From positions 115,841 to 179,840 of IMG/VR virus record IMGVR_UViG_3300041809_000571: a stretch of DNA of 64,000 nucleotides; one strand, 5' to 3'. The translations under genes and the position numbers were made by a program. Below, piece by piece: positions 2,850 through 60,699 of this stretch. The DNA is from a virus. The notes below the pieces were generated by a model that ran no database searches, had not been told where the DNA came from, and worked only from the letters and a program-made list of their open reading frames with translations. How positions within the stretch are numbered: position 1 is the first letter of the stretch; each line of letters starts with the position of its first letter.

Positions 2850-2865
2850 CCCAGTATTATTCTTT
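2850..2865 (+). promoter_or_regulatory. CCCAGTATTATTC-N3-ATG element (late-promoter-like -10 / leaderless start signal)
   Basis: One of 4-5 copies at fixed 3-nt spacing from an ATG, with no SD. Confidence 0.45.
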
Positions 2866-11998: not shown

Positions 11999-12014
11999 GA
12001 ATTTTCCGAAATTT

Positions 12015-12047
12015 TCTCTCAATTCGAGGTATACTATAAGTGAGGAG
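12015..12047 (+). promoter_or_regulatory. Promoter box GAGGTATACT followed by GAGGAG
   Basis: Motif copy upstream of the rIIB-like gene. Confidence 0.4.
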
Positions 12048-12057
12048 ACACAACCTT

Positions 12058-39389: not shown

Positions 39390-39413
39390 GAAAAACTACC
39401 CACTTTTTCTTAC
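39386..39413. terminator. Bidirectional hairpin between convergent genes
   Basis: GTAAGAAAAA ctacccac TTTTTCTTAC perfect 10-bp inverted repeat spanning both stop codons. Confidence 0.45.
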
Positions 39414-42400: not shown

Positions 42401-44110
42401 ACGAGGACAGAAGCCGCCCCACTCCGAGGCGGTCTTAGCAGTCTTAGCGGTCATCAAGGGTTGGATTACATCCTTACCCCAGTACCGATAATCAGCATCC
42501 ACAGTGGGAGACACAAGGGCAAAATAGGTCACCGCTCCTTGGTCCACGACGTAGGGGATGTATCCACTGGCGGCTGCTCCTAACCGTGCCATGCGTGCAT
42601 ACAGGGCGGCTCTCCCAGCGCCCTCCGCCGAAAAGTACATCGCCGGGGGGCGGAGATTGCGCAGGGCACTCATGACCAGACCGCCTACCTTGGTGAACAC
42701 CTCGGCGACGTGTCCGGTATTGGTAGTCCCGTAGGCACCCAGCAGGTTGGCATCGGCATTCAGGAAGAGGAAACTGACCGCCCGGTTACCAAAGGTAGGA
42801 AGCCCCGGCTCGGCATCCGTCCAACTCTGCATGACAGCGGTGTAGGGGATGTATCCCTTCTGTGTCTCGGGGGCCTTGATGTAAAATTGGGAAATCCAGC
42901 GGTCCCCGCTGGCATACCGCCAGTCTTCCCAATCGGCTGGCTCCGGGGCCTTGCGGTCAGCGGTCTTCTGGAAAAGCCCGGCGTTCTGGTCGATGAACTG
43001 CACGGCAAGAGCCGTATCATTTAGGTCTTGCGTGCTCATCGCTTGCAGTTGTTCGGGAGTAACCTCGTACACCGAGATTTTGGTTTCGGGTTTGCCGGGA
43101 TACTGCCGTCGTGCCGTTTCTGCTTTAACAAGAGCGTTGAAATCGTGAGGTCCCTTGGAGTCAATGGCAAGCTCTCCCTTGCGACAGAAAGCATGAACCA
43201 CTGTCTTCTGTTCCCCGGATTCCTCCACGATTGCCCATATCGGCCAGCCAAACTTCTGATGCAAGGCATTGGCAAAGACAGTACAGTAGCCTCCTTGCCA
43301 GCGTTCGCCCGCTGCCGTCTTAGGTTGAGCGAAAGTTACGTCACTGTCATAGACACTATAGTCCATGCCGCTCCTGCTCCACTTCACCGTCAGGAACCGT
43401 TCATTGCCGCCGTGATATTTCTGACGAACATCCTCGCCCGCATCATTAGTCTCCATGATTTCCCGGACGCCCAAGAGAGTACCCTTCTCTCCTGTGGACT
43501 TACGGATGACCGTGCAACCGATTTCACCCGGCTTGGCAAGAGCGTTATCTACCCGGTAAATATGAGAGGGGTCAAAGACTACTATCTGCGGTCCTATATC
43601 TAAAGTTTTCCATCCCCCTCCCTTATGATAGACGGCGTCGAACTTAGACTTAAGAGTCTCAGTCATCTGCTGAGTGGCTTTTACTCTACTCCATGTGGAG
43701 GTATCGGGGTCATAACCATTTTTTAACCACCACTTCATCATTGTATGAGGGGTATTGAAATTTATAGATTCAAGCCGTGGGACATCTAAGTAATAGACCT
43801 TAAGCCCTTTCAGGCTATTACCATTAAACTTTTTTCCAACTGACTGGGAAGGCGTCATATATACACCAAAACCTAAAAAGTGAATTGGTGGAGGAAGTCC
43901 CATAGCATATTCCCGATTTTCCTCAAACCCATGAGAAACCGGACCCTGACCAGCCTCGCCCTCGAATACCTTAAACCCCTCTTGGTCAATTAACTCTCGT
44001 GCTTCCGATGTAGTTCCATGGTATACTGGACCAAACAAATGCCGGTCTAACGCCTCTTGGAGAGAGATTGTCTGTGCTTTCGGAAATGCAGTTTTAGATA
44101 CATTCGTCAT
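39410..44110 (-). CDS. Giant polyvalent protein (1566 aa) with three H-Y-E type ADP-ribosyltransferase-like modules and a Cys-cluster C-terminal domain
   Basis: ART signatures VYHGTTS, ILYHGTAEDF ... AWFSTS ... FRILEYQV (PARP/diphtheria-toxin-like His, Tyr/Ser and Glu positions) and PLYHGTSAY; C-terminal CPFSTPECRHHC cluster; recurrent PDRGPEFDRIPRG module. Confidence 0.8.
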   Translation of the reverse strand: MTNVSKTAFPKAQTISLQEALDRHLFGPVYHGTTSEARELIDQEGFKVFEGEAGQGPVSHGFEENREYAMGLPPPIHFLGFGVYMTPSQSVGKKFNGNSLKGLKVYYLDVPRLESINFNTPHTMMKWWLKNGYDPDTSTWSRVKATQQMTETLKSKFDAVYHKGGGWKTLDIGPQIVVFDPSHIYRVDNALAKPGEIGCTVIRKSTGEKGTLLGVREIMETNDAGEDVRQKYHGGNERFLTVKWSRSGMDYSVYDSDVTFAQPKTAAGERWQGGYCTVFANALHQKFGWPIWAIVEESGEQKTVVHAFCRKGELAIDSKGPHDFNALVKAETARRQYPGKPETKISVYEVTPEQLQAMSTQDLNDTALAVQFIDQNAGLFQKTADRKAPEPADWEDWRYASGDRWISQFYIKAPETQKGYIPYTAVMQSWTDAEPGLPTFGNRAVSFLFLNADANLLGAYGTTNTGHVAEVFTKVGGLVMSALRNLRPPAMYFSAEGAGRAALYARMARLGAAASGYIPYVVDQGAVTYFALVSPTVDADYRYWGKDVIQPLMTAKTAKTASEWGGFCPRCGSDQTAWAMHSPTTDTYFCLDCKGSTDIERDMHPSLRAAMKIAGLVGYPWAIWEGKALLSPRGMAHTDWFARMGIPDRGPEFDRIPRGNFYIDNDKEQIYVWTDAEDYDYSKNPEESLDDTVVFGPWGGRRFDLKFTPPEVIEAIKRKYPHSETYEVVDWMPPGSVHKWSSGEWWRRWRKTYLIPKGTILYHGTAEDFPAMDIQTPAWFSTSRSVAENFQGWHGGEEGNFRILEYQVTKPIRLPRIDGGDDLERLEDMFGLRSQYGTEEILDSLPESGLPGWIIPHNYPDGDDILLADDYSITPINEPEEEEVVSQEGLPPGAWREADLPGYWTREGTTTIYHMTPEEIAEREQRLQKRSAKEPVEVEEATWSRPLYHGTSAYRAKKIKTQKSFYGETEGYNEMGVGVYTHPSMNRTSPWAAGRAQGAFMELHFTRPLKLAVKNPQGEWVSSMGGESHRFISKAPTQRELIDAGYDGIYDKHGTTQVPHQVLLFNQPVLGAGGAHKLNQLIDWDKVRIINFNESQHGYLKGLENTEEAPYYRGASKTAGKFVWPPYEEWIDGFHPYLENEAAEQGEENLAESEELRDIYDGFVQTFSSWRFPITIWRAVKLGSIEDLDTTKLGVAWTFRENMAVPYAGMGGEEFILRAKVPASSIDWDMTMELNLYGGEDEVRLIEGAPVMLEGYTIKDKWSGAKDQWFPLKKRLTAADDRPMPKEFVTTKNLKTQKPYQPALVNTENRKMMKGIPKGYLTGVMHLMPADKSGYGNVCPFSTPECRHHCLNTAGEWVNSPKIQGSRIYKTKLYFTDRPTFLKELRKSIEKIVRKAKKMDLLPAIRINGTSDLPNLGVMMAKEYPMVQFYDYTKVPKPWEKIRENYDIVFSRSETNEKEVQEALKHGVSVAVVFDLKPKQPLPAQYYGRPVIDGDLHDLRFLDKLEGEPPFVVGLRAKGKGRGKGTETGFVLKVEPLPEVKKASARELPHIEWFEDEMFSGPPREE

Positions 44111-44973
44111 ACCGTTTCCTTAATAGCACAACGATACCCACTCCAATCGTTATACCGCCCATGAGCTACATACAAAAGCATATGATAGTTAACCCCGGAG
44201 TTCCTACACCACGCCTTAAGATTTCTTATCTCAAGGGTTTCTCCTGCGGGAGTGGAAACAGCATATACCCGTTTGGTTGGGTGACCATACCTCCTGAAGT
44301 TTTCTAGCCTCTTTTGATTAGCTATCCTAATGCTTTCGGGACTTAATTGTTTTGGCTTACCCATCAATGCGCTAGAGATTAAATTTCTATGATTCTCTGA
44401 AAAAACACCCCGCTTTCTTCCCGCATTCTTTTTGGAAATCAAAGCCTTTGTCTCTTTAGAGTGTTGTTTTCCGTAAAAGGAGTTGTTAACCCCGGTGGTA
44501 TCTCTATGGATTTCATGCATAAGTTTTTTGGTTTCCTCGGAGTGGTTTTTACCGAAAAACGGATTGTTCTTTCCACTGCGAGCTTCCCCCGTTATCTTGC
44601 TCCGTTGCTCTGTATCCCATACATACCCAGAAATACCCTCTCCCCCTTCGGTAACATTTGTCAGAGGCCCCTCTCCAAGATTAAAACGCCCAATTAGACA
44701 AATGATTTTCTTCTCAAGAGTAAATGCTCTTTCCTCAGACAAAGTATCCTTTATTATGACTACGGTTGGAGATTTTCCGATGTCTAATAACTTTTGTATT
44801 ATCCTATCTTTATGCGGATTGTGGTGCTTTCCTATGTAACAGGAATGACGCCACGCCCGCCTCCCTTTTCCCTTTCCCACGTAAAATGGCTGATAAGAAA
44901 GTAGTATTTCCCCATACACATACTTTCCCGGCTTCCTTGGGTCGCACAATATGTAAACATAAAATCCACTCAT
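44107..44973 (-). CDS. GIY-YIG homing endonuclease with NUMOD3 repeats
   Basis: GFYVYIL ... FYVGKGKG ... R ... H ... E ... N GIY-YIG core; three NUMOD3-like repeats (GKNNPFFGKNHSEETKK, GVNNSFYGKQHSKETK, GVFSENHRNLIS). Confidence 0.8.
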   Translation of the reverse strand: MSGFYVYILCDPRKPGKYVYGEILLSYQPFYVGKGKGRRAWRHSCYIGKHHNPHKDRIIQKLLDIGKSPTVVIIKDTLSEERAFTLEKKIICLIGRFNLGEGPLTNVTEGGEGISGYVWDTEQRSKITGEARSGKNNPFFGKNHSEETKKLMHEIHRDTTGVNNSFYGKQHSKETKALISKKNAGRKRGVFSENHRNLISSALMGKPKQLSPESIRIANQKRLENFRRYGHPTKRVYAVSTPAGETLEIRNLKAWCRNSGVNYHMLLYVAHGRYNDWSGYRCAIKETV

Positions 44974-45001: not shown

Positions 45002-46651
45002 TTAACTACCAGAATTTACAAGCAGCCACTCCGCTAACTCAGGGGGAATCTTATGATTTGTTATTGAAGCTGTTTTCTGGCTGGCGGTTACTCCCGTATC
45101 TCCCTTGGCAACCTTGATGTATTTCGGAGGGACAGCGCCGTACAGGATGACAGTGTTGGGGGACATCCCCTGTTCATAGTCGTAATGGTAGTCGTCATCT
45201 CCCAGAGCGTGGGCGAGATACTCCCGTGCCTCTCCCTCGGCGATGTCGGATTCCCTTCCAGCAAAAGGTAAGCTGCTGGGAGGAAGCTCCCGTTTCATAG
45301 CCTCAGTGTCGATTTCCAACACAGTGTCGTAATAGTAGCTGGACTCATCCCAATCGGTGCTGGTGAAGACCGCCGCTCCCGTGCTTCGGTTGCTCAATCC
45401 CCGAGTCTCGTTCATGGAGAGCAACCCCTGTTGCAGGATGGTCTCCACCTTGTTCTCATCCGTCCCATGATACAAGGTGGAAGGGTAGGCCCAAAATTCC
45501 TTGTTAAATTTTTCTTCCGAATCAGGCAGGAACTTCTCGGCATTGTAATCGAAGAGGAGGTCTCGAACGTCAGACCACATGGTGAAGGTTCCGTCATCAT
45601 CCACGGCGACCACCGCACCGCCCACCTCATAAAGCCTGCCACCATTGTAGGCGAGCGCCATCTCCGCTCCATGCTGAGCGAGGATGGCTTCCACTTTTGG
45701 CAAGTCACCCTCCACCTCATAGAGGGCGTTTTCCAAAGTGTTGTATCCTGCGTATCCCCGCTTGCTGACAAAGAATGCTTTCTTGAGGGCGGCGGTGAAC
45801 TCTGCCTTCTGTGGGTCGTATTGTTGTGCAAATGCTGACTTAATTTGGTTAGGCTCGAAGGCTATCCAAGCGACTCCACCTTCCACCAGATTCTTGTAAC
45901 GGATACCGTCGTGCCCTGCGGCTTGCAGCTTTGTTCTTGCTTGCATGGCGAGGTCATAGGCGGCATCTTTGAGCATCTCCTCTTCCCCCTCTTCGGGGTG
46001 CATACGCTCGAACAGCCACTCATTCTGTCCCTGCCGGAAAGTTGTATCAGTATCGTACTCTTGATACCACTCATCGGCTTTTTGTGTGGAACTTTCCTCA
46101 TCCTCGGGGCTTATGCCATCGGCTATCATGGCGGACTGCAAAAGCTCCTCTTCATACCCACCTATCTTCCCCTGATAGATGAACTGGAGCATGTTCTTTT
46201 CGCTGCCAAAGTCCTTGGGGTTGATTATGCGGAGATACACGGGAATGACACGGGGTTTTTCTTCGTCGCCCTCATACCGGGTCTGGGTCCACCCCTTGCC
46301 CATAGCGAACATATCAGCGACCTTGGGGTCTACAGCGAAGTGCGCTCCCATGAAAGCGCCGGGGTCCCAGCCGCTACCGGAGGACAGCGGCTCGCCCGTC
46401 TCCGTGGTCACAACACCGTCTGTGCTGAACTCCTCGAAGTCCACCGATGACCGGGTGCCGTGGTAGACTCGGAGCGGTCGGCCCTGCTGGTCCACCACCT
46501 TGGACCCGGCAAACCAACGCCGGAAATTAGGAGACTCCACACCGGCTCCCCTTTTAGGTGAGGCAGTTTTTCTGGGCCGAGTAATCTGGTGCGCTACCCG
46601 AGCCAACTCCTCATCCGTTACGGAGTTAGTGTCCTTTTCGAGTAAGTCCAT
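45002..46651 (-). CDS. Polyvalent-family protein (549 aa) with two ART-like modules
   Basis: RVYHGTRSS and TLYHGTDENK ... AAVFTSTDW signatures. Confidence 0.7.
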   Translation of the reverse strand: MDLLEKDTNSVTDEELARVAHQITRPRKTASPKRGAGVESPNFRRWFAGSKVVDQQGRPLRVYHGTRSSVDFEEFSTDGVVTTETGEPLSSGSGWDPGAFMGAHFAVDPKVADMFAMGKGWTQTRYEGDEEKPRVIPVYLRIINPKDFGSEKNMLQFIYQGKIGGYEEELLQSAMIADGISPEDEESSTQKADEWYQEYDTDTTFRQGQNEWLFERMHPEEGEEEMLKDAAYDLAMQARTKLQAAGHDGIRYKNLVEGGVAWIAFEPNQIKSAFAQQYDPQKAEFTAALKKAFFVSKRGYAGYNTLENALYEVEGDLPKVEAILAQHGAEMALAYNGGRLYEVGGAVVAVDDDGTFTMWSDVRDLLFDYNAEKFLPDSEEKFNKEFWAYPSTLYHGTDENKVETILQQGLLSMNETRGLSNRSTGAAVFTSTDWDESSYYYDTVLEIDTEAMKRELPPSSLPFAGRESDIAEGEAREYLAHALGDDDYHYDYEQGMSPNTVILYGAVPPKYIKVAKGDTGVTASQKTASITNHKIPPELAEWLLVNSGS

Positions 46652-49600
46652 ATTTCCTCGGGTTTTTCAAGATGTACTGTGTCACTTCTGCCACGTCTTT
46701 CTCGTTACCATACAGGGGACGCTCCCCCCCGCCGGATTCGGGCATCTCCCCCATAAACTGGTTCATGAAGTCGTCGGGTTGATAAGGACCTCCATCCAAG
46801 CTCACCTCGGGGTTCGCCGGGTCCATGTCAAAATCCTTCGCCATGACCGCTGGTGACCGCTGACCCTTGATGTCATAGGTCTTTCCGTCCAGTGCCATGC
46901 AGTAAACATGGGTCATGTTCCAGTCCACCAAATTGCCGCTATCTTCAAGCTCTGCAATCTGTTCTGGACTCATCTCCCCGATATCGTGCCACGGGTCTCC
47001 CTCGGGGTCAGACATAAAGTACACAACACCTTGATTCAATCGAGCCAAGGCCACAGCAAATATGCCACACCCCTCAGTCATGTAATAGCCGGGGTCAAAC
47101 ACACTGGAATCATCGCCGTGTCCGGGCTGGAGGAGTCCAAGACCGGGCAAAGAGGCGGTGACGGGCAGTTGCAGGGCGTGCCATTGGTCTTTCATATCCC
47201 GCCACTTATCCAGCGTCAGTTGTACTCCATCCTTGAGCCGGATTTCCTCTTCATCATTGAAACTTCCGCTCATCGACAGCGCCAAGGTAGCAAACCAATC
47301 CACATCCTCGATTCTCACCTTGGCGTGGAAGACTCGATAGTTTCTGCTGGGGCTGCCATAAGGATAGGCTCCTACGTCATGTCCCGGTGTACCGGAGGAC
47401 ATCGACCAGTAGACCCCAAAGTCCTCTTGCTTTATGCCCGACCATGGCTTATCAGCAGGAAGAGAGACGGCCCGGTATACATCCAGAGGCCACTTCTGGG
47501 AAAGGAAAAACTTGTGAGAGGCGGCGAAGCGCTTCTGGGCCTCTTCTGGGGAAATTGTTAAGTCTTCTTCCTCATTGGTATCATCCACCCCGAACTCTAT
47601 CTTCAAACGGTTGGTAAAAGTGTCAGGTCCACCAAGCTCCTCAACGAACTGCCGGAAGGTGGGGATGCCTGTAGATGCAGCGGTCTTACCCCCCATCTCG
47701 GGGGGCAATGGCTTCCCCATTCTTCTAGCTATTTCAATAACCCTGTTTACCAGATTGACACATCTCGGACTTTCAATATACCACTTGGCCCCACCCTCGA
47801 ACAAGGCGGCATAGGTGTCAGCGATGACCTCTTCGGGGCGATGCTGTCCACCAAAAAAGTTGTCGAACGTAGTACGGGCATCCATCGGTGCATTGGGGGG
47901 TTTACCATCTTCCCTGAACGGGGCGAGAACATCCCTGAAATCACGGTTGAAATTCACCATTAAATCATGTCCTATTTCATGGTTGACCACCATCCTGCGG
48001 GAGTCCTCGTTACCCTCAAAGAAGGTATCACTGACACGGGTCAGACCCGGTCCCTGCCTACGGGCATCAAACGGCCTGCCGGGGACATACTCAAAGCCTG
48101 CTGGCGGATTGGCAATGAATTCCTCCTTGGTAAGCTGCCATGGTTCCTTGATTGGCTTATCCTCCGAGTCGGAAACCTTGTAAACATCTGCTGTTTTACT
48201 AACACTTTCCGCAGGCTTGACAACGTAGTTCTCCCCATATCTTGTGTTGAACTGGGCGAGGAAATCCGGGGGAATCTCCCCATAATGAACAATCAACTCC
48301 GTGGGAAGCCGCTTGCCCTCTACTTTCTCCAAGTGATACTTCTCTCTGACTTCAATCACAGCTAAGATACGATTGGACCCCCCGTAGCCTATAGGCATCT
48401 CAATGCGGGCATTATTGAAGTTGTAAACCGCATTAGGCTCCTTGGGGTTGGCATATCGCTTGAGGGCAATAGTGACCTTGGCGACGGCATCCCGGAACAT
48501 CCGTTCTCCCTCCTCGGGGGAGGGGAATAGTTTCCTGATTTCTTCCGCAGGGGGAATACTGGACTTCCCTGATTCCTCAGCGAAAGCCCTTTGGTAAGTT
48601 CTGGAAAGCTCCCAGTCCTGTTCCTTCTTAGCATGGTGAGCGGCGGAGCGAGCAAGGGCGGCGAAGAAACACTCGGGAAGAATTTCCAACAGTCGCTTTT
48701 GAACCTCGGGGTGAAAATCCCCGTTGAATTCATCGTTGTTGGTGCCGTAATACTTGAACCGTAGTCCCCGCAGGGCCTTGTAAATATACTTCTTTCTTTC
48801 ATCATCCACGTATTCTCCCCAACCCTTCGCCCTTTCAGGATAGGTGACAGCGAGGTAAGCGGGAAGAATATAGTAGGAGTTACCCATGTCGGAGATGCTG
48901 GGAAGAGCCTGTTGTAGATAGCCCGTGACACTATCCTCATCAAGATACATGGTGTTGGGCTGCAAATCCATACAGACAACGATGACTCCGTGCTCATTCC
49001 CTCGCTGCCGGGGAGAACTCATGGCGGTGGTGAGATTTTGAGTGACGTATACGCCGCCGTAGGATTCCCGGCTAGGGGAGTAGGCACCGGCATTGGGGTC
49101 ATCTCCCCAGTTGCGCTTCTTGGGGCGGGGATTAAGTCCCTCGGTCAAAATACTGCGGAGGTTACTGGGGCTGGACCCATGGTACCAGATGGACCGCTGG
49201 GCCGCAGCCTTGCCATAGCCGTAAGGCTTGACATTCCCCAGCCACTTATCAAACTCCTCAATGTCTGAGAAGGTTAGAAGGTCGTGGTCATCATCCTCAA
49301 TTTCATATACCGGGTAAGGCTTAGTCAAGGAGGCTAAAGCGGAACGAATGAGGGTGTAAGTCCGGGGAGTTGTGTGCCGACTCTGGAAAGTCACCCCGTT
49401 ATCAGTTATGATAACCCGGATGTTCCCTCGGTGCATTGCCTGCATACATGCCCGGATAGCTTCTTGCATATTCTGAGGCTCTTCCTTGTCGCAAAGTCCA
49501 TATGCCACAGCGTTCCGAGCATGGGTACTGCCTGCATTAGGGATAACCTTTCCCTTGGAGGTTATCCAAGAGCTTTCGGTGATGGGCGGCATTGCCTTGG

Positions 49601-52600
49601 AGGCTTCCTTTTCCAAAGAAGCATTTACGTTAGGACTGACCGGGTCGCAGATGGTGTTATCTGCCGCTTTGATTTGGTTGGGACTAAACACGGCGTAGGT
49701 GTCAGTCTTGCGTCCTTTCGCTTGATACGTGTCCACGGTGTTGTGAATGATGATACCATCATGCCCACCCGCCTTAGCCTCGGCTACTGTGGTATCCGTC
49801 CCGTGCCAGCTTGCTCCTCCTTTGTCCACCACGTAGGGATTCTTTATGGAGAGGTAAAACCCCTTGGTCCCCGGTTCGCATCCCTGATAGTCCCACGCCC
49901 GGTGGGGGTCGGCGTAGCTGGAAGCGGTGCTGTAGTCGGCAGCAAACCAGAAGGCCCGCTCCGGGTCTTCCTTGTGAAGGAACCGTTCAGTGGGTGTTTG
50001 AAATACCCCTTCTTCCTTGAGCCAGCGGGTGTCGGGGGAGCCATGATATACCAGCAGGGGCTTACCGTAGGGGTTCACTACCCTAGAGCCGTCGAACCAT
50101 TTCATGAATGCTTCACTGAACGTCCGGGTATCGGGCACATAGGTTCGATACTTGGGACGCCGGGCGGCGGTGATATGCTCATACTTGGGCTTTAACCAAC
50201 GTGAAGACCCACGGCGCTTCCAACCCGTGACATGCACCGGAGCATCGTGGTGGAGGGTAATCTCCTTCTCTTCCGGCTGGCCCCTAAGCGCCCACACGGT
50301 TTGTCCCCAATCCACGGCATCGAAAGTGACTTCTCCCCGGAAGATGTAGGTCTTGCGCCCCTTGTTGTATTCCTTGTACTCCTCCGCCTCGTCCGGGTCC
50401 CACACGCCAGCCCCGGCTGCTGTCTCATAGTCGGCGTTGTAGGGAACGGCAGCCGTCTCATCGTAAGTCCAGTAGATGCCAAAGCCCCGAGTATACGGAT
50501 AGCGGTTGTGCATTTTGACTGCCCGGTAAATGACCAGCGGCTCGGTCAGTGTATTGAGAAATGCCCGGATTTCCGCATACCGGACGGACTTGCTGGGGTA
50601 GACCCTGTGAAACTCCTCCACGGTGGGAAGCTGCGAAGGGTGACGCACGTGGTCAAAGATGGTCAAGGGTGCGGCGGTCTTGGTTGTAGCCTCCCACAGG
50701 GCCTTCATAGGATTGGGGAGACCCAACTCTTCCCGGTAATCATATTGACCAACGTGCGGTCCTCCCTCCACGTGAATGATGAAGTCCACCATCCGGCCTT
50801 CCACCTGCTGATATTTGTCCCAGAGTGGCTGGTCTCTCTCCACCATATCCCATGCAGGTGTGCCCTTGGGGAAGTCAATGACCACATCAATGTCAGACTT
50901 GGGCTTGAGTTCGTCACGGGCAGCGGAGCCAGCCAAGGAGATGCGTTGGCATTCGGGGTATATCTTGCGTATATCCGCTACCATCTCAGCGATAGTGGAT
51001 TGAGTCTCAGGTTTAAGCGGCTCGCCGCCCGGCTCCGTGCTCCACGCTTCCTTGGGAATAAGCAGGGCGTTCCTGCCCTTGTTGAACTCCTTGTTTAACT
51101 CCTTTGCCTCCTCCACACCGCCGTATTGCTCCCACCGCTCATACTCATTCATGCCCGTGAAGAGCCGATTCAAGGTGGTCCTTCCGCCCTGCACCAGCCA
51201 GCTTGACAAGTCGCTGCGGGGGTGAGAAAACTGCAAGACCTTATCGAGCGCCTGTAACTTGTCTTCATCACTCTTGGCAAGATACACCCCTTGCACAAGA
51301 TTCATCAGACGCCCCTCGGCTTGGTCGCTTATCCGCCAGCCGCCTTCCGGGGTATCAAAGTAGTCTGGTGCCCGTTCAAAATAATCCTCCGGGAATTTCT
51401 TGGATATGCCCTCTCTCTCCAGCATCTCCGAGGCATACTCCTCCGGTCCCATCGCACTGTGACCACAGAGGATGGAGTTGACGTAAATCTTTAGGCAGTT
51501 GTCAATGACGGTTTCCGCTATCTGATTGAGGCCCGCCGAGTCCCGGACAAACCCGGTCTTCATGTAGTCTTCCCAAATCTTGATGAGCCGGGCGGCAGGC
51601 ACGACATTCCACTGTTGACGATACCTCTTCTGGCGGACGTGTTGCATGTATTCGGTGATTACTTCTACGGCTACCACACTCTCCCGGTCGAAGAAAGCCT
51701 CTGCCGCATCATAGTAAGCATCATCACTGGCAGTTTTTTGAGAGGCATTCATGTTGCTATCGAAACTCTCAGTGTCAATGAACGAGAATTCTCCCAGACC
51801 GTAGCGATTCTTGATGTGTTCAACCACGTCATTGGGTGTATATCCCCCGGCATTCTTGACAAGGTGAACGAGCCTGTGGGTTCGGTCTACAATCGCCACT
51901 CCCCGCTCTATCCGGTCATAAGAAGGACCGGCAAACGGCAGGCTGAGTTCCTCTAACCACTGGGCATGACTCTTGTTCCCAATCTGTACGGTGGATTGAA
52001 TCTTTCCCTCATAACGAATCCACATGATGACCGTCTTCGGAACAGCGGCATCCTTAAACCCAAACCCGTCATCTTCATCATAAACTTCGGGAAGGTCCTC
52101 CTCCGTCAACTCCTTCACGTACCGGAAATCTTTTCCTTCAACTAACTGAGTGCGGGGGGTGATGAGGATAGCGCTGTAAGCCTTGTCGCCGCCGCTGGGG
52201 TCCATGGTGTACTGCACGTCATCACACAGATAGTCATCCTCGGTGGGGTATATCTCCACTACCCACGCCGTGGAGTTACGGCTGTAATCCTCGGTCAGCC
52301 GACTGAACCAGTAATCAGGGTCGCCCACGTGGACCGCCCGTAGATGCGGGTAGTCATTTGCGGAGCCTGCCAAGCCCACGGTGTCCAAGGTGTGTGTCTT
52401 AAGGACCGGCTGGCGTTCCCACACCACCCGCTCGAAGTTCCCCATCTCCTCCGCCAAGGAGACAAGCTCATGCTCGTATTCCAGCTTCTTCACTTCCTCA
52501 GTGTAGACCGGAGACAAGGCAGCGGTCAGAGGACGTTCACTGTGGGGATTCTGGACTTGGTCGTCCTCATAAAAGTCGTTGTGCCGGTCCGGGAATGGTT

Positions 52601-55600
52601 CATCATATGACCACCCCTGCTGACCGGAGATGCCAAGGTCATCTATCGCCTTGCCGGTAGGGACCGCCGCTTGCTTGGGAAGCGCTATGGTCTTGATGAG
52701 TTTAAGATTCTGCGGGGGGATATCCCAGAGATATTTCCATGCCGTAGGGTATTCGTGTCTAACCTCGAAGTCAGGCCAGAATGTTCCCTCTCCCTGCGGA
52801 ACCTTCACCTCCCAAATGTCACAAGCCTGTCCCGTGTAGGATTGCTGCTCACCTACCCAGTTCTCGGCATCAGAAAGACTACCAAATAGATATACCGCTG
52901 GCTCATGCTCCACATCCTCATATTGCTGCTTGTGGTACATCTGCAATCCATTCTTTAGAATGGAATTCCGGCTACGGCGGCGGCTGACATGGTAGGCAAT
53001 CTGAGGATACTCAAACTCATCGGCTGCCCACTTGCCCCGCAAGCGGGGAGCAACCTCATCTACAAACTCAAAGTCCCGGAGCGAGGGGTATTTCTGCTTT
53101 ATTTTAGCTACCACTTCTTCGGGAGTAAAGTCAAAGTCAGCCTCTCCTGTAATAGATTCACCCGCCCTTGAACCCTTGGGAGCGGCGTCAGTGTATAGAC
53201 GGACTCGCTTCTTTTTCTTGTTGACTTCCGCCCTTCCCCGAGGGACTTTATCAAACTCTGGCCCCCATGAAGGAATGGGGTCATGCCGCTGAGAGTGTTG
53301 ATTGAGTTCTTGAAACCATTTAACATGCCAGAGGCCCATGTCGTCGGTTAACAACACCTTGTTGTGCCATGTCGCCCACAGTAGCTCAAAATCATAAGGC
53401 TCGTAAGAGGCTACCTGTTTTATGGGAAGCGGGTAACGTTGTCGGAACTCTTCCACCCATCGGGTTACCCTCGGCCTGCATGATTCCATAGATTCTTGGT
53501 GCTCTGGGTTACCAAAGAACCCAGCATCATGCAGAGTATTCCCCCTACCGGTCAGGTCAAGAGATGTATCGTCTGGCAGGACAACAAACTGGTGCTCCCA
53601 ATTACCCCGAAGCTTTCCCCCAAATAAAGCTTGGGTAAAGAGAGAAGAGAATTTGCACGCCCCTTCAAGGTCATTAGGCTCGGAACGACCATACTCTTTG
53701 GCACGTTCCTTCCACTTTTCAATGAGAAAAGATTTAGCCTTATCCACCCATTCTGGCGTAGGGGGATATAGAGATTGAATATTCATGATAGAGGCTACGG
53801 CAATGCCCTTGCCTCGGAAGGGAAGCTTACCTTGCTCCTTGGGTGGTTTCCATTCAGGTTCTACCGGAGCATGGAACTGGTTATAGAACTCCAACAGGTC
53901 TTCATCAGCGTGAAGGTCCAGAACGTTCTGATACGTGCGGTCCAGCTTGATAGCCTCTTTAACCGGCATGACCGCAGACACCTTAGCCGCCTGCGGGTTC
54001 TCCACCCAGAACTCATTGCCGAACCCCCGGCTTACTTGATGGTAAGACTCCCTTGGTACCTCCGACATATCAATGACAGCGACATAGGCCCGGTCATTCT
54101 CGTAGTAGTCTGTCCAATTCTCTAAGTGGGAGGTGACCATCAACTTGCCCGGTACGGGTGTGCCGCCTCCCATGCTGGACATATCCCGAGGACCCTTTGC
54201 CGGGTCGATAGTGAAGTTGGGGTTATCGGTGACATGGAAGTACAATCCATGTTTGATGTCTATGGAGAAATCATGCTTGAAGTCCTCAAAAGTGGGAGCC
54301 TTGCGTGCTTCCGCTTTGAGACCGTTCAACAAAGGATGTGACCAGCGCTTGGGGGCTGTACCCTTTTTGGGGTCAATCGTACCCTTTTTGTGTACAGAAG
54401 AAGTTACCACAAGGTCGGAAGGGATGTTGTCAACGATGTTGAAATCTCGAAGCTGGGGGAAAGTCTGCAATACAGCTTCTACGAGGTATTCCGGGGCAAA
54501 GGTAAAATCGGCCCGACCTGTGATACCACCCCGCCCAGCCTCAGTAAAAAGTATGACCTCATCATCTTGCGGTTGAACCCAAACCCTTCCTCGGGGGATA
54601 CGGTCAAATTCCTTGCCAGAATCGGGAAGCCCAACCCGCTCAAACCACCTGACGTGAGGTTCAATCTCCAAAGAAAAAATTACCCGGTCATTCACAATAG
54701 CCCACAAAAAGCTCCGGGTACCATCCATGATGTCGGGGGCAAGACGTAGCTTTTTGGCAGCGGCCTTGTAAAGCTGCATCGGGCCTATGGCTCCCTTTAC
54801 CCGTGCCCCGTGTCCAATTGCCAAGCTCTCGGCAAGGCTGTCTCCTACTTCCTTACCCACTGACCGCTGATTGGCAAGCTGGTCAGTATCCGGCAGCAAG
54901 CGCCGGGCGGTGACATTGACAGCGTAAACGGTGATATCCTCTCCGGGGTAAGCCAACTCCCCAAAGTTCTTGGCGTTCCCCGGATACACAGACAAATACA
55001 CGTAACCGGGGCTGGTTTGATATGACTTGGCCCTGCCGGGACTGGTCGGGAGCAACCCCTCCTCCATCACGGGCAAGGAGGAGGCGGTACCGTGGTAAAG
55101 GGTGATGAAGCGGTTGGGGTCGGAGCGAAGGAAGCTGGCAAGGGCCTTTATGCGCTCTGGCGAGGGGTTCTGGTAGAACACGTCATGCCACTGGGGGTCG
55201 GAGGAGAAATCAGTTGCCTCTGCCCATGCAGCGGTCTTTATCTTTCCCGTAGCTATAGCGAAAGCCCGTTCCGCCATACGCTTGGCAAAAATCTCCTCGG
55301 GGTCAGAGAGATATTCCTCCTCGGTGGGAGGATGAGCGGGGTCGAACGGTTTAGATGGTCGGCCCTCTGCTGCCCAGATAGCGTGAGCGCCTTCCTCAAA
55401 CAAAGTTCTGACGATATCGGTAACGCTGATGGCGGGGTTGATGAATATCATCGAACCACCGTGGGAAAGCCCGTATCCTCCCTGCCACTTTAGGGGAGAA
55501 CCGCCCTCTAATTCCACCTCTTCCGGTTTATTGAAGGTCTTGATGGGGGTTTCAAGTACTTTCTCGTATATTTCCCTAAGTCGTTGATTCTTAAGTAAAG

Positions 55601-55709
55601 TACTGAGGTGACCTACAACCACTCCGGGAGCGTGGTTGTGTATCTTCTCAAGGAATCCCCGGTCAAGGTTATCCCAAACTCCCGCCGTCTTGTAGATAAG
55701 CTCTTCCAT
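46626..55709 (-). CDS. Giant polyvalent protein (3027 aa): 3 ART-like modules, minimal nucleotidyltransferase, HExxH metallopeptidase-like motif, and 3 copies of a novel repeat module
   Basis: TLYHGTASSLPVMEEGLLP, LVYHGSPDTRW, IWYHGSSPSNLRSILTEGLNP (PARP-like HGS ... ILxEGL); NTase motif LAGSAARDELKPKSDIDVVIDF; NHEIGHDL; repeats around GLPDSGKEFDRIPRG, PSWGPEFDKVPRG and AGPSYDRIERG. Confidence 0.85.
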   Translation of the reverse strand: MEELIYKTAGVWDNLDRGFLEKIHNHAPGVVVGHLSTLLKNQRLREIYEKVLETPIKTFNKPEEVELEGGSPLKWQGGYGLSHGGSMIFINPAISVTDIVRTLFEEGAHAIWAAEGRPSKPFDPAHPPTEEEYLSDPEEIFAKRMAERAFAIATGKIKTAAWAEATDFSSDPQWHDVFYQNPSPERIKALASFLRSDPNRFITLYHGTASSLPVMEEGLLPTSPGRAKSYQTSPGYVYLSVYPGNAKNFGELAYPGEDITVYAVNVTARRLLPDTDQLANQRSVGKEVGDSLAESLAIGHGARVKGAIGPMQLYKAAAKKLRLAPDIMDGTRSFLWAIVNDRVIFSLEIEPHVRWFERVGLPDSGKEFDRIPRGRVWVQPQDDEVILFTEAGRGGITGRADFTFAPEYLVEAVLQTFPQLRDFNIVDNIPSDLVVTSSVHKKGTIDPKKGTAPKRWSHPLLNGLKAEARKAPTFEDFKHDFSIDIKHGLYFHVTDNPNFTIDPAKGPRDMSSMGGGTPVPGKLMVTSHLENWTDYYENDRAYVAVIDMSEVPRESYHQVSRGFGNEFWVENPQAAKVSAVMPVKEAIKLDRTYQNVLDLHADEDLLEFYNQFHAPVEPEWKPPKEQGKLPFRGKGIAVASIMNIQSLYPPTPEWVDKAKSFLIEKWKERAKEYGRSEPNDLEGACKFSSLFTQALFGGKLRGNWEHQFVVLPDDTSLDLTGRGNTLHDAGFFGNPEHQESMESCRPRVTRWVEEFRQRYPLPIKQVASYEPYDFELLWATWHNKVLLTDDMGLWHVKWFQELNQHSQRHDPIPSWGPEFDKVPRGRAEVNKKKKRVRLYTDAAPKGSRAGESITGEADFDFTPEEVVAKIKQKYPSLRDFEFVDEVAPRLRGKWAADEFEYPQIAYHVSRRRSRNSILKNGLQMYHKQQYEDVEHEPAVYLFGSLSDAENWVGEQQSYTGQACDIWEVKVPQGEGTFWPDFEVRHEYPTAWKYLWDIPPQNLKLIKTIALPKQAAVPTGKAIDDLGISGQQGWSYDEPFPDRHNDFYEDDQVQNPHSERPLTAALSPVYTEEVKKLEYEHELVSLAEEMGNFERVVWERQPVLKTHTLDTVGLAGSANDYPHLRAVHVGDPDYWFSRLTEDYSRNSTAWVVEIYPTEDDYLCDDVQYTMDPSGGDKAYSAILITPRTQLVEGKDFRYVKELTEEDLPEVYDEDDGFGFKDAAVPKTVIMWIRYEGKIQSTVQIGNKSHAQWLEELSLPFAGPSYDRIERGVAIVDRTHRLVHLVKNAGGYTPNDVVEHIKNRYGLGEFSFIDTESFDSNMNASQKTASDDAYYDAAEAFFDRESVVAVEVITEYMQHVRQKRYRQQWNVVPAARLIKIWEDYMKTGFVRDSAGLNQIAETVIDNCLKIYVNSILCGHSAMGPEEYASEMLEREGISKKFPEDYFERAPDYFDTPEGGWRISDQAEGRLMNLVQGVYLAKSDEDKLQALDKVLQFSHPRSDLSSWLVQGGRTTLNRLFTGMNEYERWEQYGGVEEAKELNKEFNKGRNALLIPKEAWSTEPGGEPLKPETQSTIAEMVADIRKIYPECQRISLAGSAARDELKPKSDIDVVIDFPKGTPAWDMVERDQPLWDKYQQVEGRMVDFIIHVEGGPHVGQYDYREELGLPNPMKALWEATTKTAAPLTIFDHVRHPSQLPTVEEFHRVYPSKSVRYAEIRAFLNTLTEPLVIYRAVKMHNRYPYTRGFGIYWTYDETAAVPYNADYETAAGAGVWDPDEAEEYKEYNKGRKTYIFRGEVTFDAVDWGQTVWALRGQPEEKEITLHHDAPVHVTGWKRRGSSRWLKPKYEHITAARRPKYRTYVPDTRTFSEAFMKWFDGSRVVNPYGKPLLVYHGSPDTRWLKEEGVFQTPTERFLHKEDPERAFWFAADYSTASSYADPHRAWDYQGCEPGTKGFYLSIKNPYVVDKGGASWHGTDTTVAEAKAGGHDGIIIHNTVDTYQAKGRKTDTYAVFSPNQIKAADNTICDPVSPNVNASLEKEASKAMPPITESSWITSKGKVIPNAGSTHARNAVAYGLCDKEEPQNMQEAIRACMQAMHRGNIRVIITDNGVTFQSRHTTPRTYTLIRSALASLTKPYPVYEIEDDDHDLLTFSDIEEFDKWLGNVKPYGYGKAAAQRSIWYHGSSPSNLRSILTEGLNPRPKKRNWGDDPNAGAYSPSRESYGGVYVTQNLTTAMSSPRQRGNEHGVIVVCMDLQPNTMYLDEDSVTGYLQQALPSISDMGNSYYILPAYLAVTYPERAKGWGEYVDDERKKYIYKALRGLRFKYYGTNNDEFNGDFHPEVQKRLLEILPECFFAALARSAAHHAKKEQDWELSRTYQRAFAEESGKSSIPPAEEIRKLFPSPEEGERMFRDAVAKVTIALKRYANPKEPNAVYNFNNARIEMPIGYGGSNRILAVIEVREKYHLEKVEGKRLPTELIVHYGEIPPDFLAQFNTRYGENYVVKPAESVSKTADVYKVSDSEDKPIKEPWQLTKEEFIANPPAGFEYVPGRPFDARRQGPGLTRVSDTFFEGNEDSRRMVVNHEIGHDLMVNFNRDFRDVLAPFREDGKPPNAPMDARTTFDNFFGGQHRPEEVIADTYAALFEGGAKWYIESPRCVNLVNRVIEIARRMGKPLPPEMGGKTAASTGIPTFRQFVEELGGPDTFTNRLKIEFGVDDTNEEEDLTISPEEAQKRFAASHKFFLSQKWPLDVYRAVSLPADKPWSGIKQEDFGVYWSMSSGTPGHDVGAYPYGSPSRNYRVFHAKVRIEDVDWFATLALSMSGSFNDEEEIRLKDGVQLTLDKWRDMKDQWHALQLPVTASLPGLGLLQPGHGDDSSVFDPGYYMTEGCGIFAVALARLNQGVVYFMSDPEGDPWHDIGEMSPEQIAELEDSGNLVDWNMTHVYCMALDGKTYDIKGQRSPAVMAKDFDMDPANPEVSLDGGPYQPDDFMNQFMGEMPESGGGERPLYGNEKDVAEVTQYILKNPRKYGLTRKGH

Positions 55710-55724: not shown

Positions 55725-58700
55725 TTAGAGGGTTTCTAGCCAATCTGCGGCATCCTGCGTGGAAGTGAAGCTTTTAGACCAGTTTGGATGGTCATGCGGA
55801 CCCATCTCCAAGGTCACTTCTCCCTGAAATGGCATCATCAGAAGAGCCTCGGTGATGAGTCGGCGGCTCTTGGTGACATTTCGTGCCTGAATGGAAAACT
55901 GACCGGCATCCCGGTCAACCCGGAGGTGCCCGTTCTCCATGGCAAGGTTCTCGGCATACCCGAGGTAATCCTCCCCTCCCTGCTCCTCTACCTCCCAATC
56001 ATCCATACCGCAAAGGTTCTCCGCCATCGCCCACTCCCCGTGAAGTTCGTAAGGGTGAGTCATGGGAAGGGGTCGCCCGTCCCGAGATATCCAGCCGCCG
56101 TTTTGAGAGAGCTTGGACCAATCGCCGGAACGTTCAGGCCACGGGCCGGATGGTTGCAGAAGAGGGTTTACCCTGCGCCGGGCAGCTTTCACCCGGAAGC
56201 CCCCCTTTATCTTGCCGCCGTAAACCTGCTCTTCTTCATTGACGTGAGGGGTCTTGTACAAGGACGAGTCGTAACCTCTCGGATTCATCTCCAAGAGCAT
56301 GTTTTCCATAATCCCGGCACCCTCATCATTCGCCGAATGCACAAACCACCGCTGGGGAATGAGGTTGTTAGCCTTGAGCCACTTGATACAATCCACCCCG
56401 GTCTTCTCCTGATATCGTTCGTAAGGTGGTGTACCTGACTTGTACCGTTCTTCCTCCTCGGCGTAAGTGGGGTAATGCTCCAGAGCCAAATCGTGGTCAA
56501 AGGAGATGGCCTCGGGCATGGGATGCGTTGTCATGTACTGGACAAACTCCTCATAGTTCCTGACCCAATCGACATCGGAAGCAGTGGGTCGGCGCATGTC
56601 GTCAACATAAAGGAGCCTAGCGGGTTGCTCCTCCGCCTTCTTCCTCACTTTCTTAGTTGGGTTGACATAGATTTTTAGCAGATTGGGGAAGGTATAGGGG
56701 GCCATGCACTGCCACGCTTCCTCGGGGGTAAGAGGGTAGACTTCCATGAAATCCAGACCCATCTGGAGGCGTTTCTTTGCCCGGTGATTACCGTCAATGA
56801 GGATGTAGTGCTTCTGTGGCTCGGGATGATTTTTATCTGGCTTATAAACGAGTGGAGCCACGATACCGGGCTTCTCGATATCAACCTCGTTCATGTGTTC
56901 CTTGTTCAGGCCCACGTTCATGAGGTTGATTCTGCCCTCTTCCTCCGCTTTGTCATCCTCCACCGTGCCGACAAAAGCCTCAAGGAATGCCTTGGGGGCC
57001 TTCTGTGCGGGCCGGGGATTGGCGGCGATAAACTCTTCTGCTTTGTCAACAGCAAACTGCAATCCCCAGTAGGAGAAGCGCTCATCCTGCCAAGCCTTCT
57101 TAACAGTGGGCTGTGGACCCGTCAGCGGCTTGTACATGATGTACTCGCTGTCTACATAAGGCTCGAACCCTAACTTACCATAGAAGTCATAGAGGGTTTC
57201 TATCTCTGTTACTTCATCTAAGGGAGAGGCGTGCAGGTAGCTGTCTTGTGCTCCTGCCCGGCGTGCCGCCTGTAAAACCGTATCCACGAGAGCGGTGCCC
57301 AGTCCTGTGCGCCGGGCGGCAGGGTTGACTTCCACAGCGAGTAGGAGGAAGGTACGGTAGTTCTCGTTGCCTTCGACCTTATCCGATTCGTCGTAGTCGG
57401 TAGAGAATCCATTTTCATCCAACCAATCTTCCAGTCCCTCAAGGTTGGTGATTTCCCCACGGGCATAGCCAAGGCGGTGTTTGGCTTCAAGCTGGGTTCC
57501 CCTCTTGATAACCCGGATACCACTTCCCGCCGATACCTTCTCTATGGGGGCTTCGGTAACGGACGCCTCACGGGAGATGAATGCAACCTTATCCCGGTCG
57601 GCAACCATCCAGTCCTCTTCTCCGGGAAGCTTGTAGCCTTGCAGTCTACGCCAGATGTTGGGAACCCGCTTCTTGTTGTACCTATCCGGGAGATAGCTCT
57701 TGATTCCTTTCCACCTCGGACTCATGAATTGCATCAAGGCGAAGTACATCGCCTTGCCCAGTCCGTATCCCCGGTGCCGTGGTTTCACTTCCACCAGACC
57801 TATTCCGAGGTAATCGTTCAGGGGTCCACTGTCGCTCTGCCGTTTGGTAGATAGTTTGCCAACACATTTGTTGTCCTCCGTCCATGCCGTGATGTATTCG
57901 GCGTCTTCGGGGTCATCCACGACGATGCGATAGCTTCCTACGTGGGCTACTACGTTCTTGTCTTCCCACTGTTCTACGGAGGCAATCTTCCTTGGCTCCG
58001 GTAGCACTGTGATATTTTTAGGAGGAACAAAGCGAGTTGAATAGGAAGGAACGCCGGTTTCCCCTACCCCCAAGGGGTCCTTCGCCAAGCGTAATCCCTC
58101 AGTCTTAATGCGGAGGGTAACTAGCTCGTCATCCTTACCCCGGATGAACTCAGCGAGGAGATTTTTCCAGTAATCCACCCCCTCAATCGCCGTCAAGAAT
58201 ACCAACCCACGACTCTCCTCGAAGGGGAAGTTTGGCTCCTTTTGCGGAACCAACCCCTCTTGAAGTATCTTGGGGACCCGGCTCTTAAAAGTCACATGAT
58301 AGAGAATCTCGGGAATCTCAGCAGCGGTCTTGGGAACAACCGCCGAGCCGGTACCTTTCCGTTGATACTCCGGGTCGTTCAGGTTGGTGATTACCACTCG
58401 CCAGTCATCCTCTTCTCCGGGGTGGAATTGGTCGCAGGTGATGTCAATAATCTTATCCTGCGTCTCTACCCACCAGTGTAGTCCATGCCTGCCCACCTGC
58501 AAGTGCTCACCCTTTTCCGGCCCCTCTCCATAATACCCACCCGCCCGGTGAGCGTCGGGGAATCCGTGCTCTCGCAGGAACTTCGCCAACAGGTCCGCCA
58601 GACAGAGGCACTGCTCACGGAAACAGGACTTGTCCTCTAACCACTCATACCAATCCTCTTGCTCCTCCCGGAATTGCCACACGAGTTTGGCGAGCGTATC

Positions 58701-60035: not shown

Positions 60036-60699
60036 AAGCCTTGGTTTCCTTCTCCCACATTTTCAGATATTCAACCGCCCTTTGCACAATGCCGATATCA
60101 TCCTTTAGCAAGCCTATTCCACGATTGCAGCCTCCGCAGAGCATCCCACGAGGAGAATCCGTTATGTGGTTGTGGTCAAGGTCCGTTGCCGGTGCCTGTC
60201 GGCATATGGCACAAAGCCCTGCTTGGACAGTAAGCCGTTCTTGGATGTAGGACTCGTCAACACCGTATATATAGCGGCGATGTGCCGCTTGGACCTTTCT
60301 TGGGTTGTTTTTTCTCCATTCGGCATGCTGCTTTCGCCTCTTTTCCAGACTACGATGCTCTAGCTGCTGGCTGTAGCAAGCCTTACATAACCCAAATGCT
60401 TCATGGGGACGGTCTGGGTGGCACCCCGCCTTTCTCCCCTTGAAGTTCCCCTTGTGCATAGAATCAACGATAAACTGCTTGTTTTTCTTTCGGCACTCCT
60501 CCTTGAAACAGGTCGTAAGGTCCTTTGCATAGTATCTGGGAACCTTGAATTCCTCATTGCAAAACCGACAAATCCTCCTTATCGAATGCTTCTCTCTTGT
60601 TGCCTCGCCATAGCATTTCCGGCTACAAAAATTTTTCTCTTTGATGCTCGCAGGGCACCTGTCAAACTCTTTTTTGCACCATCCACATTCCACCAACAT
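60028..60699 (-). CDS. HNH homing endonuclease (endonuclease VII-type HNH) with N-terminal Cys-rich zinc-finger repeats
   Basis: GLCAICRQAPATDLDHNHITDSPRGMLCGGCNRGIG. Confidence 0.75.
   Translation of the reverse strand: MLVECGWCKKEFDRCPASIKEKNFCSRKCYGEATREKHSIRRICRFCNEEFKVPRYYAKDLTTCFKEECRKKNKQFIVDSMHKGNFKGRKAGCHPDRPHEAFGLCKACYSQQLEHRSLEKRRKQHAEWRKNNPRKVQAAHRRYIYGVDESYIQERLTVQAGLCAICRQAPATDLDHNHITDSPRGMLCGGCNRGIGLLKDDIGIVQRAVEYLKMWEKETKAYA

Follow-up and report, generated by a model that had tools for sequence, protein, structure and literature searches.

A 64,000-nucleotide stretch of viral DNA (IMG/VR record IMGVR_UViG_3300041809_000571, positions 115,841 to 179,840; hereafter the window) encodes two giant proteins, g3027 (3027 amino acids [aa]) and g1566 (1566 aa), in which a module of about 90 aa recurs, and it raises the question of what this module is and what it contributes to such proteins. 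We find that the module represents a previously unannotated, very rare domain family present in viruses and some bacteria. On balance, we favor the interpretation that it is a new viral and bacterial branch of the fold shared by the human phosphohistidine phosphatase PHPT1 and the Janus proteins, serving as an effector domain in multidomain phage "polyvalent" proteins, probably as a phosphohistidine-type (P-N) phosphatase.

The initial annotation had described three copies of the repeat in g3027 and one in g1566, and the window contains exactly these four. The pattern [FY]D[RK][IV][PE]RG has exactly four sites, at residues 368, 819, and 1264 of g3027 and residue 653 of g1566, and a hidden Markov model (HMM) built from the four copies recovered these same four from the six-frame translation of all 64 kb (domain E values of 1e-44 to 3e-31), with no further match below an E value of 1. 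BLASTP of the whole g1566 protein against g3027 gave E values of 8e-17, 3e-13, and 4e-4 for the three pairings, while the excised segments, compared pairwise, aligned over 102 to 151 residues at 24 to 37% identity (E values of 1e-6 to 2e-21). A MAFFT alignment of the four copies (alignment A1) has 11 invariant columns (W7, H24, W27, P42, G45, D49, R53, G54, A71, P92, and D113), which are distributed along the whole module. By both methods, conservation is extended and is not limited to the EFDRIPRG peptide. Individual copies are 93 to 120 aa long, the spread being caused by a loop of variable size that joins strand 4 to helix 2; copy 3, the shortest and most divergent, is devoid of the long form of this loop, and copy 4 carries the longest insert. 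A C-terminal segment, DF.F.PE.VV...K..YP.LRDF.FVD, had been said to follow each copy; it does so in copies 1, 2, and 4, but in copy 3 it is shortened (GYTPNDVVEHIKNRYGLGEFSFID).

The description of the module as novel was likewise supported. No family was matched when whole proteins, isolated modules, and 63 family members were scanned with Pfam, PHROGs, and NCBIfam models, and A1 and a 63-sequence family alignment (A2), used as profiles against PDB sequences, returned chance matches only (E values of at least 0.2). Megablast of the 9-kb gene found no match among GenBank phages; tblastn with copy 2, copy 4, a divergent member, the family consensus, or human PHPT1 retrieved nothing real from 50,697 GenBank phages, and neither did the consensus from 72,556 plasmids. 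A word-indexed search of 5.8 billion proteins yielded only 2 relatives, both fragments, and when 1.84 billion cluster representatives were searched exhaustively with an HMM, 82 relatives were obtained at E values of 1e-3 or less (18 at 1e-10 or less). Nine of these 82 proteins exceed 1500 aa and 24 have at most 200 aa, with one to four module copies per protein. Scanning IMG/VR with A1 detected the window's own phage lineage at 99% identity and two distant contigs; copy 2 was found at 99% identity in viral contigs UViG_3300018019_000005 (140 kb) and UViG_3300037843_000261 (99 kb), so that the window belongs to, or very closely matches, the genome of an uncultivated phage of at least about 140 kb.

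Mean column identity in A2 is only 21%. Residue counts, taken from 89 aligned domains, nevertheless single out one His and the Gly of an RG pair as invariant (89/89 each) and an Arg (86/89), an Asp (85/89), a Pro (85/89), and a second Gly (83/86) as nearly so; Trp is conserved in strand 1 (77/83) and in helix 1 (80/89). The first half of the family signature reads lWA-x(12-20)-H-x2-W-F-x3-G-L-P-x2-G-x2-[FY]-D-[RK]-I-x-R-G, and the RG pair is followed by two strands, a variable loop, and the motifs f-x-P-x-e-V-V, K-[YF]-P, and [YF]-x-[VF]-x-D.

AlphaFold2 models of copy 2 built from 4 sequences (predicted local distance difference test score [pLDDT] of 81.2; predicted template modeling score [pTM] of 0.76) and from 63 sequences (pLDDT of 85.3; pTM of 0.79) have the same topology, E-E-H-(short H)-E-E-[low-confidence loop]-H-E. 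The module is thus predicted to be a compact, independently folding alpha/beta domain of five strands and two helices in the order beta-beta-alpha-beta-beta-alpha-beta. The suggestion that it is a linker is not borne out, given this compact fold (pLDDT of 81 to 85) and the conserved His, Gly, and Arg. In both predicted models helix 1 begins with the invariant His. The loop from helix 1 to the following strand is formed by GLP..G..FD+I.RG, the segment with the strongest conservation, and the loop before helix 2 is hypervariable. When the 63-sequence model was compared with the PDB using Foldseek, ranks 1 to 5 were all human PHPT1 (2hw4, 2nmm, and 2ai6), with a best E value of 0.011, probabilities of 0.82 to 0.99, and template modeling scores of 0.43 to 0.54; the next match had a probability of 0.30. 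PHPT1 was first or joint first by two independent structure-comparison methods on the two models, with about 12 to 14% identity in the structural alignments. Among BFVD viral structures, the best match (E value of 0.11) was unconvincing.

A link to the same family emerged from profile-profile comparison. The hhalign target was an alignment of 226 sequences combining vertebrate PHPT1 and arthropod Janus-A, and the human PHPT1 query sequence was identical to 2AI6. Against this target, the family profile scored a probability of 89.7% (P = 1.9e-6) over 66 to 89 columns, spanning helix 1 to the last strand, and the four window copies alone reached 87% (P = 3.8e-6). In this alignment, the invariant His falls on PHPT1 His53 and the invariant Gly falls on G77, within the GGGR loop; the alignment also pairs DKKIHVYGYS with KKKRVRLYTDA and KIKAKYPDYEVT with KIKQKYP..DFEFV, so that the KYP…YEV ending is matched to KYPDYEVT. 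In the global version, strand 1 is additionally paired with FKYVLIRV and strand 2 with KEIVRGY. As controls, the reversed profile gave a probability of 0.2%, and 200 shuffles of five-column blocks gave a mean score of 14.5 (standard deviation, 3.8; maximum, 32.7), compared to 38.4 for the real alignment. The arthropod sequences matter for this result: without Janus, PHPT1 alone scored 43%, a vertebrate-only profile scored 52 to 61% and matched the C-terminal half only, and before the arthropod sequences were added the N-terminal half was misaligned. Because three lines of evidence converge, namely, the fold search with two methods on two models, the profile-profile score, and the co-linearity of four motifs including the catalytic His, we consider it quite probable that the module is homologous, distantly, to the Janus/PHPT1 fold.

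In PHPT1, water is activated by His53, which acts as the general base, and the phosphate is held by the backbone NH groups of His53 and Ala54 at the N terminus of helix 1 and of Ala96, by Ser94, and also by Lys21 and Arg78, in a pocket between the alpha1-beta4 and beta5-alpha2 loops (PMC4817053, PMC11277029). Judged from the aligned residues, the catalytic base appears to have been kept, while the phosphate and substrate cradle appears to have been rebuilt. In addition to its conserved Arg, the family frequently has an Arg or Lys three residues before it.

Several observations weigh against a phosphatase of the PHPT1 type. The position equivalent to Arg78 is Arg in only 21 of the 89 domains, the Arg present in 86 of them being a different one, two residues upstream; no conserved basic residue in strand 1 corresponds to Lys21, and no His at the start of helix 2 corresponds to His102. 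The loop that bears Ser94 to Ala96 in PHPT1 is highly variable in length here: the aligned position is Ser in 18, Ala in 14, Thr in 13, and Gly in 7 of 78 cases, and 0 to about 35 residues of low model confidence come after it. The family has a conserved set of its own, made up of the two Trp residues, a Phe, the Asp, and the Arg upstream of the Arg78 position, and its chemistry or ligand may therefore differ from that of PHPT1. Sequence searches add to these reservations, since the Ocnus/Janus HMM PF05005, carried by all the true PHPT1/Janus proteins that were retrieved, misses all 63 isolated family domains at an E value of 1 or less and is without a match in the giant proteins at 0.01 or less, and the profile search of PDB sequences fails to retrieve PHPT1. 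Moreover, whether the Drosophila Janus proteins themselves have phosphatase activity is unclear (PMC4817053).

Some of these points are also in keeping with a noncatalytic adaptor, targeting, or ligand-binding domain, in which His, Arg, Asp, and Trp would form a binding surface on a PHPT1-like scaffold; such a domain might, for example, attach a neighboring ADP-ribosyltransferase (ART) or other effector domain to a host protein, or it might hold a phosphorylated or nucleotide ligand that is not turned over. The lack of conservation of most PHPT1 phosphate-binding residues (Lys21, Arg78, and His102) and the unclear role of Janus would fit, as would the relation of the module to ARTs. For 14 of 63 copies, an ART-like hH[GVA][TSG] motif is located no more than 90 aa downstream, compared to 9% of background windows (2.4-fold), and the duplicated unit of g1566 and g3027 continues from the module into the N terminus of the following ART (190-aa BLASTP alignment, g1566 residues 621 to 792 versus g3027 residues 778 to 953). 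The module-ART association is real but loose: the initial annotation placed the module before or after ART modules, and this holds in that the downstream motif exceeds background. Against an adaptor, an invariant His at a helix N terminus, aligned to the PHPT1 general base, together with an invariant Gly and a near-invariant Arg and Asp in a family of such low mean identity, is an active site-like pattern, and the occurrence of solo genes and of many different partners implies that there is no fixed docking partner. We regard an adaptor role as unlikely. It is also conceivable that the resemblance to PHPT1 is convergent and that the module is an unrelated new enzyme family, acting on, e.g., ADP-ribose, nucleotide, or cyclic-phosphate substrates alongside ART, 2H, and cREC domains. 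The distinct set of conserved residues and the co-occurrence with NAD/ADP-ribose and cyclic-nucleotide enzymes are compatible with this notion; however, an hhalign probability of 90% (P of 2e-6) that lies above all 200 shuffles, four co-linear motifs that include the catalytic His, and the agreement of two independent structure-comparison methods on two models make convergence improbable.

The initial annotation also proposed a processing (cleavage) role, which would make the module a self-processing protease that cuts the giant polyprotein into effector units. It is believed that units are released from polyvalent proteins by processing (PMC5512222), and the module does conserve a His and an Asp, yet none of the residues that could serve as a Cys, Ser, or Thr nucleophile is conserved in the 89 sequences, and the His-Asp-Cys triad of CE-clan (Ulp1/adenain-like) cysteine proteases is not present in the module; a protease or self-cleavage identity was rejected for lack of a nucleophile. 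Foldseek matches to proteases had probabilities of at most 0.3, compared to 0.82 to 0.99 for PHPT1, and hhalign favored PHPT1/Janus, so that the closest relative by both structure and profile is a phosphohistidine phosphatase. In the stand-alone versions of 100 aa, moreover, there would be nothing to process. Self-processing by the module is thus highly improbable, and zincin-like motifs (HEIGH in g3027) and an over-represented KTA motif fit processing in trans by a dedicated protease instead.

The KTA motif, usually [S/Q/G]-K-T-A-[A/G/S/D], was observed six times in g3027 (0.7 expected) and six times in g1566 (0.5 expected), and the linker motif [S/Q]-K-T-A-[A/G/S] is 9- to 12-fold over-represented in both giant proteins. 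It is located at residues 6 to 9 of each and in apparent interdomain linkers, and it is present in the neighboring g1436 and g549 proteins as well. Among the module-bearing relatives, 48 occurrences were observed compared to 12.4 expected, including 10 compared to 0.9 in one protein of 3912 aa (P0003). From this distribution, KTA is a candidate cleavage motif of a maturation protease or a candidate domain-boundary motif, and it would be a better candidate for processing than the module.

Returning to a PHPT1/Janus-fold effector, our results extend to the repeat and its family, the predicted fold, the homology of profiles, and the alignment of the His; catalysis, substrate, and host delivery are inferred. 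Virion-associated polyvalent proteins, which are thought to enter the host along with the DNA, would carry the module as one of a long series of effector domains that also includes ARTs, GNATs, a nucleotidyltransferase, and GP88. Each copy would bind a phosphorylated ligand and hydrolyze a phosphoramidate-type (P-N) bond, with the His activating water and the conserved Arg, aided by the Arg or Lys three residues upstream, holding the phosphate; the putative counterpart of the GLP..G..FD+I.RG loop in PHPT1 is one wall of the substrate pocket. Candidate substrates would be phosphohistidine on a host protein (e.g., a two-component kinase, a phosphotransferase system [PTS] protein, or nucleoside diphosphate kinase [NDK]) or else an adduct of a related phosphoryl or nucleotidyl type. 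Since the phosphorylated bacterial kinase CheA~P is a substrate of PHPT1 in vitro (PMC11277029), bacterial His~P proteins are plausible substrates for the PHPT1 fold. With three to four diverged copies, substrate specificity may have been diversified via the variable loop between strand 4 and helix 2. A role as a hydrolase or a tight binder of a phosphorylated ligand, and most simply as a P-N phosphatase, is a tentative assignment. It is more doubtful still that phages package and inject active PHPT1-type P-N phosphatases, with several diversified copies per virion protein, and in this way erase host His~P signaling or defense early in infection; the candidate targets would be two-component kinases, PTS proteins, NDK, and ligase or nucleotidyl-enzyme adducts.

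The domain context of the relatives bears on this proposal. Most are giant phage polyvalent proteins, and some are stand-alone genes. The partner domains include ART-PolyVal, ADPrib_exo_Tox (ADP-ribosyl exotoxin), GNAT, SET, SprT-like zincin, ParB_N, TPR, InPase, Acb1/2H phosphoesterase, PI3/PI4-kinase-like (in two proteins), and ATP-dependent DNA ligase domains. Apart from TPR, the partners are counter-defense or modifying enzymes, in agreement with the concept of polyvalent proteins put forward by Iyer et al. 2017 (PMC5512222). A relative with four module copies (P0007, 3263 aa) is encoded on a 168-kb phage-like contig, and P0003, which has two copies, adjoins another ART/GNAT protein of ~3900 aa. 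The stand-alone genes encode about 100 to 130 aa and are found in a phage-like contig (P0039) and also in bacterial chromosomal neighborhoods; one of them, P0080, lies directly after a rhomboid protease gene and near ThrRS and flagellar genes on three independent contigs. A stand-alone bacterial subfamily of ~110 aa has the motif DHVTWF..LGLP.(F/Y)G..(F/Y)D..LRGR; in GTDB representative genomes, this pattern retrieved no true member and one false positive, inside an acyl-CoA synthetase. The module had been considered specific to polyvalent proteins; it is found mainly there, but the stand-alone genes in phage-like and bacterial contexts show that it is not confined to them and argue that it works as an autonomous unit.

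In three metagenomic relatives the module is part of a fusion: P0050 (573 aa) contains an ATP-dependent DNA ligase, and P0040 (594 aa) and P0060 (685 aa) contain PI3/PI4-kinase-like domains. ATP-dependent DNA ligases form a Lys-AMP phosphoramidate intermediate. As hints to the chemistry of the module, the kinase-like and ligase fusions are suggestive but anecdotal.

The 64-kb window originates from a large novel tailed phage that encodes rIIA/rIIB, an HNH-RNA ligase, a tRNA nucleotidyltransferase, and collagen-like tail fibers; its rIIA is only ~32% identical to those of the nearest isolate phages. The giant genes form a minus-strand block (window positions 39410 to 63753) whose products have 1566, 549, 3027, 1436, and 1007 aa. 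The block is broken up by two homing-endonuclease genes and may be one ancestral super-gene that was split by these mobile endonucleases. Pfam detects ART-PolyVal repeatedly in the block, as well as GNAT, Pol-beta-type nucleotidyltransferase, cREC_REC, and GP88 domains, and its giant products are "polyvalent proteins" as Iyer et al. 2017 use the term (PMC5512222). In g3027, ART-PolyVal (aa 1882 to 2019) and NTP_transf_2 (aa 1581 to 1623) are accompanied by a subthreshold PARP-like match (aa 2165 to 2246); in g1566, GP88 (aa 1306 to 1527; E value of 4.5e-35) is accompanied by a subthreshold ART-PolyVal match (aa 760 to 813); and g1436 has a cyclic-phosphate-processing receiver domain (cREC_REC, aa 1141 to 1247; E value of 3e-18). 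Directly upstream of copy 4 there is a CxxC...CxxC zinc ribbon (CPRC…CLDC) with weak Pfam matches to Zn_ribbon_PaaD and the Lar restriction-alleviation protein (E values of 0.02 to 0.05), and copy 4 is followed by an ART-like ILYHGT domain. The coordinates of these features are compiled in Table 1.

Table 1. Coordinates of the module copies and of other features in the window and in stand-alone relatives
Feature	Position	Strand	Basis or remark
Copy 1, g3027 aa 331-431	54417-54719	-	HMM domain E 1e-44; invariant His352 (codon 54654-54656); FDRIPRG aa 368-374
Copy 2, g3027 aa 772-888	53046-53396	-	HMM domain E 6e-44; copy used for modeling; invariant His795 (codon 53325-53327); FDKVPRG aa 819-825
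Copy 3, g3027 aa 1224-1316	51762-52040	-	HMM domain E 3e-31; His1248 (codon 51966-51968); YDRIERG aa 1264-1270
Copy 4, g1566 aa 615-734	41909-42268	-	HMM domain E 4e-42; His637 (codon 42200-42202); FDRIPRG aa 653-659
g3027, 3027-aa polyvalent protein, copies 1-3	46626-55709	-	Open reading frame list and translation
g1566, 1566-aa polyvalent protein, copy 4	39410-44110	-	Open reading frame list and translation
g1436, 1436-aa protein	55725-60035	-	Pfam: 3 GNAT acetyltransferase stretches and cREC_REC
Zinc ribbon, g1566 aa about 567-594	approx. 42329-42412		Directly upstream of copy 4
Second ~135-aa module	g1566 aa 1147-1279 (about 40274-40672); g3027 aa 1716-1858, 2714-2853	-	BLASTP
KTA sites	g3027 aa 7, 158, 1325, 1677, 2505, 2675; g1566 aa 6, 264, 382, 556, 559, 1117	-	Motif count
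Homing endonuclease, GIY-YIG and NUMOD3	44107-44973	-	Pfam; between giant effector genes
Homing endonuclease, endonuclease VII/HNH-type	60028-60699	-	Pfam; between giant effector genes
rIIA/rIIB	9488-13272		
P0080	L002 8001-8333; also L003, L004		Stand-alone, bacterial chromosomal context
P0077	L001 695-1030		Stand-alone, bacterial chromosomal context; near tryptophan halogenase

A second repeated module, of ~135 aa, is common to both giant proteins (BLASTP E values of 3e-10 and 8e-6). Its motifs hYRAV, G.YWT, and EEEh.L resemble those of an R-S-E-type ADP-ribosyltransferase, and it is covered by no Pfam model.

If the proposed relationship is true, the "eukaryote-only" PHPT1/Janus family has an unrecognized older viral and bacterial branch, which may point to its evolutionary origin. 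The proposal also provides a first function-level hypothesis for viral dark matter that has no annotation in any database, and with it a testable proposal, namely, that host histidine phosphorylation, the core currency of bacterial two-component and PTS signaling, is a target of phages at the time of DNA entry. The 89 domains with one invariant His offer natural diversity with which to probe both the mechanism and the evolutionary origin of PHPT1. The finding is a surprise for the phage-effector and phosphohistidine-signaling fields and can be tested directly; its support consists of structural scores that are borderline and a single good score from profile-profile comparison. Should the module turn out to be no phosphatase, it would still define a new domain family with clear limits that can help to annotate giant proteins of phages.

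Among known systems, the closest comparison is with PHPT1, Janus-A, Janus-B, and Ocnus (PF05005; 2HW4, 2NMM, and 2AI6), which at about 100 to 125 aa are of similar size. To our knowledge, the PHPT1/Janus family is treated as eukaryotic. The module shares with PHPT1 the predicted secondary-structure order, with two helices flanking a mixed beta-sheet, the position of the general-base His at the N terminus of helix 1, the conserved Gly (G77 of GGGR) that opens the next strand, and the helix-strand ending ...K+KYP-(x)-Y/F-E-V.... PHPT1 is described as having six strands and two helices and as the sole phosphohistidine phosphatase with this fold known in mammals (PMC4817053). Unlike PHPT1, the module has no N-terminal extra strand, does not conserve the Lys21, Arg78, and His102 residues, and escapes the PF05005 HMM; it has a motif of its own (lWA / H..WF..GLP..G..FD+I.RG) and a hypervariable equivalent of the phosphate loop, with 0 to about 35 extra residues. 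It also differs in its distribution, being found in phages and a few bacterial contigs, whereas the named PF05005 matches that we retrieved were all eukaryotic, and in its architecture, since PHPT1 is a solo 14-kDa enzyme and the module is repeated as domains inside giant proteins.

The same architecture places the module among the polyvalent domains, which likewise occur in giant multidomain phage proteins with ART-PolyVal, GNAT, InPase, ParB, zincin/SprT, and 2H domains; Iyer et al. 2017 listed 131 domains, 40 of them LPDs, and mention no phosphohistidine phosphatase or Janus-like domain (PMC5512222). Like several LPDs, the module can be duplicated in one protein and can also stand alone; it is set apart from the named LPDs in that no Pfam LPD model matches it, a distinction that is drawn with Pfam models only and excepts LPDs outside Pfam. 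Since tblastn found no homolog in the 50,697 GenBank phages or the 72,556 plasmids, the family was probably absent from the 2017 survey. A survey of NAD/ADP-ribose in viruses similarly mentions no phosphohistidine phosphatase or Janus domain. The bacterial phosphatase SixA, of the histidine-phosphatase/PGM superfamily, has the role that is proposed here, namely, dephosphorylation of His~P proteins. Its fold and its RHG motif are unrelated to those of the module, and it uses a phospho-enzyme intermediate. A SixA-type identity of the module was rejected, as there was no Pfam His_Phos match and the fold superfamily differs. SixA-type genes are listed as viral auxiliary genes (PMC12713726), and in the literature on PHPT1/Janus or phosphohistidine phosphatases in phages they were the only ones found. 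The PHPT1/Janus fold itself is known; what would be new is a branch of it that is undetectable by sequence search and that occurs in a new biological setting.

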